Shown one piece after another: positions 33,328-37,426 of a stretch of DNA of 64,000 nucleotides; positions within the stretch are counted from its first letter, which is position 1; every line of letters begins with the position of its first letter. The notes under the pieces are model-generated. The model saw nothing but the letters and a program-made list of their open reading frames with translations. It had not been told where the DNA came from and searched no databases. The position numbers and the translations under genes were made by a program. Origin of the DNA: an uncultured Oscillospiraceae bacterium (GTDB lineage Bacteria; Bacillota; Clostridia; Saccharofermentanales; UBA5734); assembly GCA_963827665.1 (NCBI GenBank), contig CAWHBQ010000006.1:191953-255952 (forward strand), written 5' to 3'.

Positions 33328-35229
33328 TCATTCTCCGAGCAGGATCGAGTGGATGACGACCCCGTAGCGGCGGATCAGGTCCTGTTTGACTTGCCGGTAG
33401 GCATCCGGGTCACCCTGGCGGGTTGTGCGGTCAACTGTGTGACGGGCTAGCACTTCAGTGATGACATCGAGCAGGAGTTCCGCGAGCAGAAGCCGGGCGC
33501 CATCCTTGAAATGTCCCTGGCCGCTGACGTAGAGCCGTACCGTCGGAGCTTCCGTGTTGATCAGGATCAGCCGTTCTTCGGCACTGTAGATTGCCCGGTC
33601 CATATCGTTGTCGAGATTCCTCAGTTCGTAGCCACGGAAAAGATCGACGGCATTGTCCATATTCCAGGGCCTGCCGGGTTTTCCGGATGGATGTCCATAC
33701 CCTTTCCCGGAGGCATTTTCGGCAATGACAACCTCACAGAAGGCGCTGTAAGGCCCCGTCGTCATGCCGATCCTGGCGCTCGCATCGATCTCTGATCCCG
33801 TGACCGTCAAGATCAGCCGGCCATCTTCCGGCAGATCGGCGACTGGCAAGGCCTCCGGCTGAGGTTCAATCTGAATGCTCCTTGCCCCCTCGTAGATGAA
33901 GCTGAGGATTTCCTGATCCAGTAACTGCAGACGGTCGACAATTGCGGTCACATGGAAGGGGTGGCCAACTTTTCGGTAATAAAACGGCGTGCTGAAACGC
34001 AAAACGGCTGGCCGCCCTGTGTCATATGGCCCATATTGGCCAGATCCAGGACCGGGTGGCAAGATAATCCCCAGCTCCTCGACTGCGATATTGTTCATCC
34101 GCTGCAGGACATGGTCGATCCGTTCTTTCGTCCGCCCGGATATGATCGCATGATCGATATGGCTGAGCCTCAGCTGCTCGCTTTTGATAATGTTTTCCAG
34201 CATCTGGCTGACTGCGTCGGCAAAGGCAGCCACAAACGGTTCTTTCAGGTTGAGGCCCTCTCGCTCGTCGCTGATGACCGGATGGCCTTTGGCAAGCATA
34301 GCCGCCAATCCGTCGCAGACAACTGTGCCGAAAAGAAACTCAGTTCCGAGCTGATTCTCGAAGCGCAGGAACTGGCAGTCCAGCACAGCCTTTCCGGATA
34401 TAATCAGCAGGCCATTCGTGCGTTCATCACCCTTGATGACCAATTCCACATCCTGAGCTTTCTTGAGCGTCAATGTGAAGGAGAATTCCTGGCCCTGGTA
34501 TTTGAACTCGCCTTCCGCATCTGGCCCGATCAACACCGTGGCGTCTGGTTCAATGTAGGAGAGCTGCAGTGATGTGCGGACTTTTCTGGCAATATTGAGG
34601 TTGAGAATCTCTACTTTGCGGCGCTCCAGGATATCGCGCAGATAGATATTATTGGCGATCGTGGTGACAAGCGAACTATAGTAGGGGATGTTCGTCTCTG
34701 GATTGTCGATCACAATCGTGACTTGCGACCCGTTGACGCCTGGCGGAATGGACATCCGAAGGTAATCCTTGTTCACTGCGGCCCGGTCGCCATCCCCATC
34801 ATCGAAAAGGTATTCACCCGTTTCCGAACGATAGAGGTCGACCCGGCTGTAACGACCACCGGCGATCGATTCGACCCAGCCATGGCCGAGCCCATAAACA
34901 GCCTGTTTCATGCCGCGGCCGAAATAGCCCCGTCCACCCGCTTCGCCCTGGGCGAGATTGCTGTGGGCTCCACCGTAGGACAGGATAGCCAGAATGCGCT
35001 CGAATGACATGCCTTCAGCCCGGTCCGCGACAGAGATAATCGCGCCGCTCAAGTGACGCTCGTAACTGATCAGGATCGTTCCCTCAACGGCCAGGCCAGC
35101 ACTTTCGAGGCGTGAATAGCTGTCGTCACTATTGGTGACCAGCTCGACCAAGGCCTTTTCAACTGAAGCAAAGCGGCGGGAATCGATATCGATGACCCGC
35201 TGGTTGACCGGCAAAATTCCGACTGCCAT
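33328..35229 (-). CDS. Standalone GHKL-superfamily ATPase (MORC/Hsp90-like HATPase_c_3 N-terminal domain) with a large uncharacterised C-terminal region
   Basis: N-box ELVTNSDDSY, G1-like DRAEGMS, G2 box GGRGYFGRGMKQA. 634 aa from the ATG with RBS GAGGAG. No His-kinase, MutL or GyrB partner domains recognised. Confidence 0.6.
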   Translation of the reverse strand: MAVGILPVNQRVIDIDSRRFASVEKALVELVTNSDDSYSRLESAGLAVEGTILISYERHLSGAIISVADRAEGMSFERILAILSYGGAHSNLAQGEAGGRGYFGRGMKQAVYGLGHGWVESIAGGRYSRVDLYRSETGEYLFDDGDGDRAAVNKDYLRMSIPPGVNGSQVTIVIDNPETNIPYYSSLVTTIANNIYLRDILERRKVEILNLNIARKVRTSLQLSYIEPDATVLIGPDAEGEFKYQGQEFSFTLTLKKAQDVELVIKGDERTNGLLIISGKAVLDCQFLRFENQLGTEFLFGTVVCDGLAAMLAKGHPVISDEREGLNLKEPFVAAFADAVSQMLENIIKSEQLRLSHIDHAIISGRTKERIDHVLQRMNNIAVEELGIILPPGPGSGQYGPYDTGRPAVLRFSTPFYYRKVGHPFHVTAIVDRLQLLDQEILSFIYEGARSIQIEPQPEALPVADLPEDGRLILTVTGSEIDASARIGMTTGPYSAFCEVVIAENASGKGYGHPSGKPGRPWNMDNAVDLFRGYELRNLDNDMDRAIYSAEERLILINTEAPTVRLYVSGQGHFKDGARLLLAELLLDVITEVLARHTVDRTTRQGDPDAYRQVKQDLIRRYGVVIHSILLGE

Positions 35230-35288
35230 GATAACCATCTCCTCTGTTTTCATTGTAACGCAATCGTCTGTCTCGCAGGTCCGGAACC

Positions 35289-36065
35289 ATGTTAAAATCA
35301 AGGCAAAACAACGAAAGAAGGCGGAACTTGGCTGCACAAACGATCCGAAGAGGTTTCGACCAGCAGGATCAGGACTGGTTTTCAGAAGCCGCGATCGCCC
35401 GGCTTGGCGTAGCCCAGGCCGAAATCCAGTGGTTGCTGGATCGCGGTTATCAACCTGGCCCAGTTATTGATTTCGTCGGCAGCCACCACCAGCTGACTGC
35501 AAGACAGCGCAACGCCCTGCAGAGGTCAACTTCATCACAACGTCAGTATGACCGGCGAAAGTCGAGCCAGCTCCCGCTTGAAGCAGCCCGGGAAGGTTGG
35601 CTGTTCATCGATGGTTTCAACCTGGTCATCACACTCGAGGTGGCTCTATCTCGAAGCCTGGTCATCCTCGGCAAGGATGGCGTTTACAGGGACTTGGCCG
35701 GCCTCCGCGGGACCTATCGCCTGATCGCGCAGACCGACCAGGCTTTGCACCTGATCGGCAAGGCACTGAACAGTCTTGCCGTGCCCGGAGTCAAATTTTT
35801 CCTCGACCAGCCGGTGTCCAATTCAGGCCGGCTGCGCCAGAAAATCCTGTCCTTTGCCGAGCAATGGCAGATCCCGGTCGAAGTTGAGCTGGTACCCAAT
35901 ACGGACACCATCCTTGCAACCATGGCCCGGATTGTGACCGGTGACTCGGTCATTCTCGACCAGTGCCAAAGCTGGTTCAATTTATTGGGAAAAATTATCT
36001 CAGACGATGTCCCGGAAGCCTGGGTTGTCCGATTCAGTCAGGATACACATAAGGCAGAACCATGA
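35289..36065 (+). CDS. NYN/YacP-like (PIN-fold) domain protein with N-terminal helical domain (DUF434/DUF5616-like)
   Basis: WLFIDGFNLVITLEVALSRSLVILGKDG resembles the YacP/NYN LxVDGYN core. 258 aa. Stop overlaps the dinB start (ATGA). Confidence 0.5.
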   Translation: MLKSRQNNERRRNLAAQTIRRGFDQQDQDWFSEAAIARLGVAQAEIQWLLDRGYQPGPVIDFVGSHHQLTARQRNALQRSTSSQRQYDRRKSSQLPLEAAREGWLFIDGFNLVITLEVALSRSLVILGKDGVYRDLAGLRGTYRLIAQTDQALHLIGKALNSLAVPGVKFFLDQPVSNSGRLRQKILSFAEQWQIPVEVELVPNTDTILATMARIVTGDSVILDQCQSWFNLLGKIISDDVPEAWVVRFSQDTHKAEP

Positions 36066-37426
36066 AGCGAACTGTTTTCCTTGTCGATATGAACGCTTTT
36101 TTCATTTCCTGCGAAATGACCCGGAATCCCGCCTTGCGTGGTTTGCCTGCCGCAGTTGCCGGCGACCCGGTCAAACGGACCGGGATCATTCTGGCGGCCA
36201 ATTATGATGCCCGTGCCCTGGGGGTTCGCACAGCCATGACGCTCCATGAAGCATTGAAATACTGCCCGGGTCTCGCCCTGGTGCCGCCTGACCATTCGTT
36301 TTACGCCGAAAAGTCACGCGAAGTGATGGCGATCCTTGACCAGTTCAGCCCGGTCGTCGAACAGAACAGCATCGACGAGGCATGGCTGGACATGACCGGT
36401 TGTGAAGGCTTGTTTGGTCCGCCGCTGGAATCTGCCAGGCTGATCATGCAGGCCATCGAGACCAAGCTTGGCTTGTGGTGCTCGATCGGGATCGCCGAAA
36501 ACAAGTTCCTGGCTAAAATGGCGTCGGAAATGAAGAAACCCCGGGGCATCACTGAATTATGGACAGCCGATGTTCCCCGGAAACTATGGCCGTTACCGGT
36601 CCAGTCGATGCATGGTGTGGGTGGCAAGACGGCTGCGAAACTTGAGCGGCTAGGCATCCGGACGATCGGCGACCTGGCTCGGCTCGACAGCCGTTTCCTT
36701 GTCCAGCTGTTCGGCAAGGCAGGGGACGACCTGCACCGCCATGCCAACGGCATCGATGAGTCGCCGGTCCAGTCCCATCGCCATGACGATGCCAAATCGA
36801 TCGGCCGTTCAACAACCCTGGCCGAAGACGTCAGTGACCTGGCAGATGCCAAACGCATCATCCTGGAATTGGCTGGCGAGGTCGGCCTGCGCGCCCGCCG
36901 CCAGGGCGGCAAAGGCCAGACCGTCCAGATCACCCTCAAGTACACGGATTTCAAGGTAGTCACCCGCCAGGCCACGGTCGAGTCGACCTGGTCGACCGAT
37001 GATATCTATCTGGCCGGTTGTGCCCTGCTCGAGCAAAACTGGGATCCCAGGCGGCCGGTGCGTCTGCTGGGCATTACTTTGACTGGTTTTAGCAAGGGTG
37101 ATTCGGTTCAGGACAATGCTGAACAGGCTGGCTTGCCCCGCCAGCTATCTATTTTCGATATGCCAGAAACTTTGCCGCCTGGAGACAAACCCGAAGGCCG
37201 TCCTGTGGGCCAACCTGGCCAGGGCCAAGCCAGCCAGGGTAAAGATGGCTTGTCGCAAGTTCCTGCCGCATCATCCGGCCAGCAGTCGGCCACCAGGCGT
37301 GATCAGCTGGAAAAAGCAATGGACGGCATCCTGGCTAAACATGGATCCGGGATGATCACCCGCGCTGCCCTGATCCGGGAAGACAAGGCCTTTCCGGATA
37401 AAAAACATAAACCCAAACCAGATTGA
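36062..37426 (+). CDS. dinB: DNA polymerase IV (Y-family, DinB) with Gln/Gly/Pro-rich C-terminal extension
   Basis: MKRTVFLVDMNAFFISCE catalytic N-terminus, little-finger domain. About 100-aa low-complexity tail. 454 aa. Confidence 0.9.
   Translation: MKRTVFLVDMNAFFISCEMTRNPALRGLPAAVAGDPVKRTGIILAANYDARALGVRTAMTLHEALKYCPGLALVPPDHSFYAEKSREVMAILDQFSPVVEQNSIDEAWLDMTGCEGLFGPPLESARLIMQAIETKLGLWCSIGIAENKFLAKMASEMKKPRGITELWTADVPRKLWPLPVQSMHGVGGKTAAKLERLGIRTIGDLARLDSRFLVQLFGKAGDDLHRHANGIDESPVQSHRHDDAKSIGRSTTLAEDVSDLADAKRIILELAGEVGLRARRQGGKGQTVQITLKYTDFKVVTRQATVESTWSTDDIYLAGCALLEQNWDPRRPVRLLGITLTGFSKGDSVQDNAEQAGLPRQLSIFDMPETLPPGDKPEGRPVGQPGQGQASQGKDGLSQVPAASSGQQSATRRDQLEKAMDGILAKHGSGMITRAALIREDKAFPDKKHKPKPD

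Follow-up and report, generated by a model that had tools for sequence, protein, structure and literature searches.

A paraMORC-like GHKL ATPase and a COG2454-dinB operon, probably independent neighbours in a narrow lineage of uncultured Bacillota

Introduction

In eukaryotes, ATPases of the MORC type play an important part in silencing, whereas most of their relatives in prokaryotes are linked to restriction systems. The present analysis concerns a standalone GHKL ATPase with likeness to this family, together with two genes divergent from it, a COG2454 nuclease gene and dinB, the gene for DNA polymerase IV (Pol IV). The three genes occupy positions 33328-37426 of a 64,000-nt stretch of DNA from an uncultured Oscillospiraceae bacterium, referred to below as the window. 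An earlier note, made from the letters of this DNA, had drawn attention to the ATPase and the nuclease-dinB pair as an uncharacterised combination of a kind that recurs in phage-defence and DNA-damage modules. The reading favoured here, with a probability of roughly 0.6, is that the locus consists of two independent transcription units that became neighbours by chance in a narrow lineage of uncultured Bacillota, the first of which encodes an ATP-gated clamp.

Described relatives exist for both units. Iyer, Abhiman and Aravind gave the MORC-specific S5 motif as GhXhhpXXRhl (2008, PMC2292703). VcSduA, the type I-D Shedu protein belonging to paraMORC3, cannot defend without its C-terminal nuclease, a DUF4263 domain of the PD-(D/E)xK type (PMC12137116). 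For the second unit, Matelska et al. described COG2454 as a PIN-like domain of the NYN group fused to the helical DUF434, with at least five conserved aspartates, HHpred mapping to FEN-like structures and no known function; the bacterial members are mostly monocistronic and scattered, and a role in tRNA and rRNA 3' maturation was proposed from the gene context in archaea (2017, PMC5499597).

Gene organisation and conservation of the neighbourhood

The open reading frame (ORF) list and the translations place three genes in the interval, the ATPase gene on the minus strand and COG2454 and dinB, divergent from it, on the plus strand. The ORF behind the ATPase gene runs from 33328 to 35337 on the minus strand and encodes 669 aa when counted from a GTG, while the homologues, over 100 in number, have a length of about 633 aa and start with MA(V/I)xxLPV(D/N)Q; this shared length and start indicate that the true gene is 33328..35229, encoding 633 aa, one residue fewer than the earlier note had given for the same strand. 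COG2454 extends either from a TTG (35328..36065, 245 aa), the start preferred by gene callers and homologues, or from an ATG (35289..36065), which yields the 258 aa claimed before. The divergent gap accordingly measures 98 nt with the TTG start and 59 nt with the ATG start, the latter agreeing with the spacing of about 60 bp first noticed. The dinB gene (36062..37426, 454 aa), identified by Pfam and NCBIfam matches, shares 4 nt with the end of COG2454, as noted earlier, stop and start being joined in ATGA, and the two genes are translationally coupled through this overlap.

The ATPase gene stands apart from this operon. Downstream of it lies a CDGSH zinc-finger gene (33052..33324) in convergent orientation, and the ATPase gene is therefore monocistronic. 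Direct reading of the divergent intergenic region (35230..35327) suggests signals of its own on the minus strand, namely a putative -10-like TTACAAT at 35258-35252 and a putative ribosome-binding site, GAGGAG, at about 35245-35238; extended -10 elements of a similar kind, and ribosome-binding sites, also occur upstream of homologues at other loci. At 0.659, the GC content at third codon positions (GC3) of the gene matches the mean for the window (0.654 +/- 0.034) and is that of native sequence. An Rfam scan of 30-39 kb returned no match at E <= 0.1, and a repeat scan of the locus found chance-level repeats and an internal duplication in the CDGSH gene, nothing else.

Linkage of the two units was evaluated in a collection holding one representative genome per species, with the best 80 loci kept per scan. 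Clustering of the ORFs found up to 10 kb to either side of the ATPase gene, at 84 loci and in the window, revealed no widely shared neighbour family, and COG2454 was found beside the ATPase gene at none of the 84 other loci. The immediate neighbours (n=135) represent 115 Pfam families; Usp is the most frequent, with 5 of the 135, all from one clade. Of 85 loci (the window included), 8 have dinB near the ATPase gene, and these are confined to three clades. The converse comparison drew on 80 metagenome loci whose COG2454 proteins are 43-69% identical to that of the window; dinB or the ATPase gene occurs within 6 kb of COG2454 at none of them (0/80), and no neighbour is constant among them.

The order seen in the window is shared by two close relatives only. 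One contig, L183, whose COG2454 is 78% identical, repeats it exactly, with CDGSH, the ATPase gene and then the divergent COG2454 and dinB, and a second, L165, interrupts it, since four unrelated genes separate COG2454 from an ATPase gene whose product is 88% identical. At a third locus, L184, where COG2454 is 62-64% identical, both dinB and the ATPase gene are gone. Recurrence within so narrow a lineage points to synteny by descent rather than to a functional module. The conserved linkage on which the proposed pairing depended is thus missing, the pairing itself is not supported, and following up the three genes as a novel GHKL-NYN-DinB damage or defence system is not warranted.

A link to phage defence, raised in the same context, fared no better. 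PADLOC (2023 library) gave no match for the three window proteins or for ten distant relatives of the ATPase, and no PADLOC family appears in more than 2 of the 135 immediate neighbours. Families of SF-II helicases, methylases or endonucleases are likewise not recurrent, either in these neighbours or within +/-10 kb of the 85 loci.

The GHKL ATPase

At the level of sequence, the assignment of the ATPase to the GHKL superfamily is solid. The motifs that the earlier note had labelled N-box, G1-like and G2 are all present in the translation, as ELVTNSDDS at aa 29-37, DRAEGMS at aa 69-75 and GGRGYFGRGMKQA at aa 98-110. They belong to a Bergerat-fold ATP-binding domain (aa 1-180; 34690..35229, minus strand), modelled with a predicted local distance difference test (pLDDT) score of 80-92, so that the protein has both the four ATP motifs and the fold of the superfamily. 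Motif I comprises E29, N33 and D36; motif II, D69-x-A-E-G73, has Ala in place of the first Gly of DxGxG; motif III is G99-R-G-x-F-G-R-G106-x-K108 and motif IV G167-T168. In alignments all four vary little or not at all, whether within the family or among relatives at 22-38% identity. Pfam, run on a 641-aa query, returned only HATPase_c_3 (aa 30-124), barely above threshold (25.3 bits; cutoff 25), leaving the C-terminal region of about 450 aa without any domain match, as had been stated. NCBIfam matched neither this protein nor COG2454, and single-sequence searches of the PDB with either protein found nothing. A profile built from the relatives at 22-38% identity performed better, retrieving MORC3 (E = 6e-6) and MORC4, both before Hsp90, for which the matches were limited to about aa 33-97 at E >= 0.003; the MORC3 segments DNGNGM and GLYGNGFK align to the ATP-binding region. 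Pfam, the PDB profile search and fold comparison therefore agree on a standalone GHKL protein of MORC/Hsp90 type.

Other members of the superfamily can be set aside. The middle and C-terminal domains gave no match to the HSP90 family profile, Pfam reporting HATPase_c_3 alone, and neither the DNA_mis_repair transducer profile nor the C-terminal dimerisation or endonuclease domain of MutL was found. A sensor histidine kinase was considered and rejected, as Pfam detects no HisKA and the GHKL domain already begins at residue ~20. The claim that kinase, MutL, gyrase and Hsp90 middle domains are all lacking holds for sequence models only; the structure model departs from it by predicting a transducer-like second domain.

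The AlphaFold model has a mean pLDDT of 69.7, with 80-92 in the N-terminal half. Fold-comparison values are about 15 for TRAP1, GRP94 and HtpG, 14.2 for SMCHD1, 14.1 for MORC2, 14.0 for ParE, 13.8 for MORC3 and 13.6 for MutL. The model aligns with two-domain GHKL modules over 223-295 residues (about 230-295 for Hsp90, SMCHD1, MORC2/3 and MutL), compared with 170 for an HtpG entry that contains the N-domain only, and with the modules of MORC2 and MORC3 across 263-286 residues, although pLDDT falls to 45-60 in parts of aa 260-330. The length of these alignments suggests a transducer-like, or S5-like, domain after the Bergerat fold, at about aa 181-330 (34240..34689, minus strand). This predicted domain holds the strand G273-L-L-x-I-S-G-x-A281, as well as R323, which is invariant across the superfamily alignment. 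A helical linker is modelled beyond it, followed by a predicted Ig-like beta-sandwich at about aa 405-505 (33715..34017, minus strand). The C-terminal region (aa 506-633; 33331..33714, minus strand), delimited by the family alignment and the model, begins with a strongly conserved yet poorly modelled stretch (aa 506-568, pLDDT 28-41) and continues into a hairpin of two helices (aa 576-630); Hsp90 and MutL offer an analogy by which this hairpin may be a dimerisation element. The possibility that this half conceals a nuclease or DNA-binding fold had been suggested for examination; structure comparison detected neither a nuclease nor a classical DNA-binding fold in the model. The idea of a PD-(D/E)xK nuclease concealed near the C-terminus was also rejected, the superfamily alignment containing no conserved set of acidic and Lys residues.

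The homologues listed for the window protein are uniform in length and 59-88% identical to it. The family as a whole, with identities of 50-88%, is spread over five phyla. A library clustered at 50% identity contains one full-length representative at 59%, the next at 36-38% and then others at ~22-33%. Relatives were found in 175 of ~185,600 species representatives, drawn from Bacillota, Actinomycetota (Arthrobacter, Propionibacteriaceae), Campylobacterota (Sulfurovum), Desulfobulbaceae and, within Pseudomonadota, the Stutzerimonas/Pseudomonas group, Methylobacter, Nitrosomonas, Marinobacter and Rhodocyclaceae. The protein tree is incongruent with taxonomy, which indicates lateral transfer. No homologue occurs in 72,556 plasmid records or 50,697 phage records.

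Distant homologues (24-30% identity, up to the N-terminal ~330 residues) are encoded on six IMG/VR GVMAG contigs (L169, L170 and L173-L176), labelled as giant-virus metagenome-assembled genomes.

Compared with MORC proteins, the ATPase likewise has the four ATP motifs in an N-terminal GHKL domain, after which the model predicts an S5/transducer-like domain, has MORC3 and MORC4 as its best sequence matches among solved structures, and resembles the MORC and paraMORC families in a sporadic distribution suggestive of lateral transfer (PMC2292703). The shape of the MORC motif is retained as G273-LLIISGK-A281-VL except at the Arg position, where the defining residue is replaced by an Ala (A281) that is invariant in the family and also present in the consensus of the relatives at 22-38% identity. 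The strand G-L-L-V-I-S-G-T-A-V-L likewise keeps to the MORC pattern apart from the Arg. Because of this replacement the protein is not filed as a MORC proper; it is best described as a paraMORC-like member of an uncharacterised family, no description of which was found in the open-access literature searched on GHKL and MORC ATPases and on anti-phage defence. It differs further from MORC and paraMORC proteins in standing alone, without SF-II helicase, methylase or restriction-endonuclease neighbours, and its C-terminal half consists of the Ig-like domain and helical hairpin instead of a nuclease, TIR or CW domain. VcSduA is similar in being the product of a single gene of comparable size with an N-terminal GHKL domain, a clamp-like middle and no conserved neighbours (PMC12137116); it differs in its DUF4263 PD-(D/E)xK domain, of which neither domain nor motif is detectable in the window ATPase. 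Hsp90, HtpG and TRAP1 differ in that the ATPase has no HSP90 match in Pfam, its profile prefers MORC and its C-terminal half folds differently. Of the three window proteins, COG2454 and DinB are of known kinds, and what is novel in the ATPase is its unassigned Ig-like and helical C-terminal half.

These features suggest how the protein could work. The Bergerat fold would bind ATP, with E29 as the probable general base, N33 as the Mg2+ ligand, D69 contacting adenine and G99-G106 forming the lid. The N-terminal domains would dimerise upon ATP binding, R323 of the transducer-like domain being a candidate sensor of the gamma-phosphate, and the C-terminal helical hairpin may keep the dimer together constitutively. 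The outcome would be an ATP-gated clamp in which the Ig-like domain and a cavity engage a macromolecular substrate. This substrate is most likely DNA or nucleoprotein, given that MORCs are the closest sequence relatives with solved structures and that the ATPases of sister clades have small partner proteins, which are possibly winged-helix-like.

Sister clades and their partner genes

In sister clades from Acidobacteriota and Chloroflexota, the ATPases are about 25% identical to the window protein and are themselves tightly conserved. An unannotated gene on the same strand, here called B (~228 aa; range about 180-230), lies 12-115 nt upstream of the ATPase gene, mostly 12-45 nt, and the Acidobacteriota clade possesses an additional gene, A, of ~205 aa. 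The loci that contain partner and ATPase genes are L177 (4694-8001), L181 (4656-8004), L179 (4576-7881), L171 (7389-9851) and L172 (7245-10148). Homologues of B also sit directly upstream of distant GHKL homologues on two IMG/VR contigs, and in Chloroflexota B has a KPAPVKPKVEK repeat insert. Pfam similarities are weak, B approaching HVO_A0261_N (E 9e-4, under the cutoff) and A approaching TrmB and TFIIE-alpha (E 0.02-0.03, sub-threshold); going by these families, we take A and B to be possibly winged-helix-like. PADLOC gave no match for A, B or the IMG/VR homologues, and no A or B homologue is present in the window or at any core-family locus. At L181, the sister-clade member is flanked by a PIN_12 gene on one side and by transposases and an integrase on the other.

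The arrangement suggests that the wider superfamily may work with small DNA-binding partners, and that the window clade has dispensed with them or keeps them elsewhere in the genome; together, the ATPase, B and, where present, A could form a system of two or three genes that is so far undescribed. A broader conjecture, tentative and rather unlikely, is that the ATPase makes up an undescribed prokaryotic MORC-like branch with the proteins 22-38% identical to it (~750 clusters at 50% identity), several clades of which have a small upstream, possibly DNA-binding, partner and may form a DNA-directed two- or three-gene system for silencing, compaction or foreign-DNA immunity, for example. The window clade would then be a partner-less, unusually conserved and horizontally spreading derivative, and the recurrent proximity of dinB might hint at the handling of DNA damage.

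The COG2454-dinB operon

The product of the first gene of the operon has the architecture of COG2454, with a DUF434 helical domain (~35403-35564, plus strand; 65.3 bits, cutoff 27) followed by a DUF5616 PIN-like nuclease domain (~35586-35987, plus strand; 166 bits, cutoff 27.6), both above the Pfam gathering score. The segment LFIDGFNLVITLE, on which the earlier assignment to a YacP/NYN-like PIN core was based, was located in this protein. An alignment of 27 sequences shows D95 (in IDGFN), D117, D122, D160, D193, D206 (in TGDS) and D211 to be invariant, so that the conserved catalytic aspartates, a check proposed beforehand for this gene, are in place; D95, D160, D193, D206 and D211 lie at strand ends in the AlphaFold2 secondary structure. 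The AlphaFold model (pLDDT 89.6) has a PIN-like alpha/beta/alpha fold with its best structural matches among FEN-like 5' nucleases, and a profile search against the PDB yielded only noise. Membership in the YacP/Rae1 NYN family proper failed at the level of sequence profiles. The YacP/NYN-like core therefore stands at the superfamily level, not as a YacP/Rae1 protein, and the nearest structural class is FEN-like.

With its DUF434 and DUF5616 domains, at least five conserved aspartates and FEN-like matches, the window protein is typical of the published family. It differs in being operonic with dinB, an arrangement also seen in the two close relatives, previously unreported and absent from the 80 other loci, and the archaeal gene context behind the published role is absent here. 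The lineage-specific operon gives a small hint that a nuclease with FEN-like matches could have DNA, and not tRNA, as its substrate. In the favoured reading, the second unit would be a metal-dependent PIN-like nuclease of the FEN-like/NYN group, coupled in this lineage only to the translesion polymerase Pol IV.

The polymerase itself is an ordinary Y-family Pol IV with the full IMS/HHH/IMS_C architecture (Pfam: IMS 160.6, IMS_HHH 40.1 and IMS_C 98.2 bits; NCBIfam PRK02406: 298.6 against a cutoff of 256). Compared with Pol IV generally, it has a C-terminal tail of ~100 aa, and its gene comes second in an operon, behind that of a PIN-like nuclease. The tail includes QLSIFD, which we take to be a motif resembling those that bind the beta-clamp.

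A LexA box upstream of the operon had been proposed as a further check, and none was found with the LexA/Cheo consensus GAACN4GTTC, a Bacillota-type sequence that may not be that of this lineage. The whole window contains no exact match, and the intergenic region has none with up to two mismatches. Scanning 35150-35420 returned four two-mismatch matches, at the edge of this interval and inside the COG2454 ORF, and the equivalent regions of five related loci (L032, L165, L016, L019 and L029) have no match with up to one mismatch.

Alternative readings

The possibility from which the analysis started, that the ATPase and the divergent nuclease-dinB operon form one DNA-damage or phage-defence module in which the ATPase senses or remodels DNA for the nuclease and polymerase, draws on the divergent order kept in L183, on the action of MutL and MORC relatives on DNA, and on the recurrence of dinB, which lies upstream and divergent at a distance of <=2.2 kb in a second clade (L016, L019, L029 and L032, at ~6700-10000) and 7-8 kb from the ATPase gene in the Acidaminococcales clade (L023, L026 and L030). 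Counted by lineage, this recurrence makes two or three events in a few dozen, which is above naive chance and is one of the points that weigh against two independent units; an old Bacillota synteny would also produce it, and the restriction of the dinB-positive loci to three clades fits descent. Since COG2454 is missing from all 84 other ATPase loci, dinB and the ATPase gene from all 80 COG2454 loci, and since four unrelated genes split the units in the relative with the 88% identical ATPase, with neither a LexA box nor a PADLOC match, the module is judged highly improbable, and so is any real functional tie between the ATPase and dinB. Two further points count against the favoured reading of two units and a clamp: the substrate of the ATPase is one that we infer, and the structure model is only moderately confident (mean pLDDT 69.7), so that the conserved, unmodelled aa 506-568 could conceal an effector.

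An effector in that stretch is what would be expected if the ATPase were a single-gene defence protein against phages or mobile elements, like paraMORC3/VcSduA. Such a protein might show the sporadic occurrence across phyla at 50-88% identity, the discordant tree, the resemblance of the GHKL and clamp-like middle domains to VcSduA (PMC12137116), the setting of L181 between a PIN_12 gene and transposases and an integrase, and the distant homologues on IMG/VR contigs. It would sit less well with the lack of a conserved acidic/Lys motif in relatives at 22-38% identity, with neighbours that are housekeeping, signalling or stress genes and include no defence family in more than 2 of 135, with absence from the plasmid and phage records, and with a conservation unusually strong for an immune gene and a composition native to the genome; this possibility is unlikely. 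An Hsp90-like, ATP-dependent chaperone or stress protein with protein clients is quite unlikely. Its length, which resembles that of HtpG, was counted for it, as were stress-type genes near the ATPase gene in some clades: Usp directly downstream (Acidaminococcales clade), PspA (Dehalobacterium) and Band_7/SPFH (Raineyella and the window lineage). These stress-type neighbours are clade-specific, however, and SPFH, PspA and Usp were rejected as a conserved stress context; MORC3 and MORC4 precede Hsp90 in the profile search, Pfam gives no HSP90 match, the Ig-like and hairpin C-terminal half is unlike Hsp90, and in the sister clades the ATPase gene is preceded by small partner genes whose products are perhaps winged-helix-like, as judged from sub-threshold Pfam matches. 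The preferred reading remains that of an ATP-gated clamp and an unrelated nuclease-polymerase operon. Specialists will find nothing very surprising in it, nor does it open any long-standing question to testing. The remaining lead is a sizeable, conserved GHKL family, of which Pfam covers the N-terminal ATPase domain only and which is a target for experimental characterisation; a standalone MORC-type branch without a nuclease would broaden the range of such clamps, a prospect to be taken as a lead and not as a result.

Surrounding genes

The Usp genes noted among the immediate neighbours lie on the same strand as the ATPase gene, 26-106 nt downstream of it, at L023 (11965-12450), L024 (2064-2510), L026 (11998-12444), L030 (12008-12454) and L038 (2467-2919); L023, L024 and L030 are labelled Acidaminococcales, and L026 and L038 Acholeplasmataceae. 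The two genes may form a clade-specific operon. At the four loci of the second clade with a divergent dinB (L016, L019, L029 and L032), an Nramp gene accompanies dinB in variable order. In L165, the closest long relative, the operon has an extra gene between COG2454 and dinB, for a 225-aa GNAT-like acetyltransferase (1130-1807), which is not found in the window or L183.

On the ATPase side of the locus, the two-domain CDGSH iron-sulfur gene (33052-33324) adjoins an SPFH/Band_7 gene (681 aa, 30950-32995) in the same orientation. The two are separate in L166 and called as a single Band_7 and zf-CDGSH fusion of 771 aa in L165 (10003-12318), which either hints, in the manner of a Rosetta stone, that the two are functionally linked or results from a frameshift in the assembly. 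On the other side, just past dinB (37535-42016), lie an ABC ATPase gene, recognised by BLAST similarity to other ABC ATPases, and a 1240-aa ORF, which from its translation appears to be permease-like with a long Ala/Glu/Gln-rich, coiled-coil-like insert.

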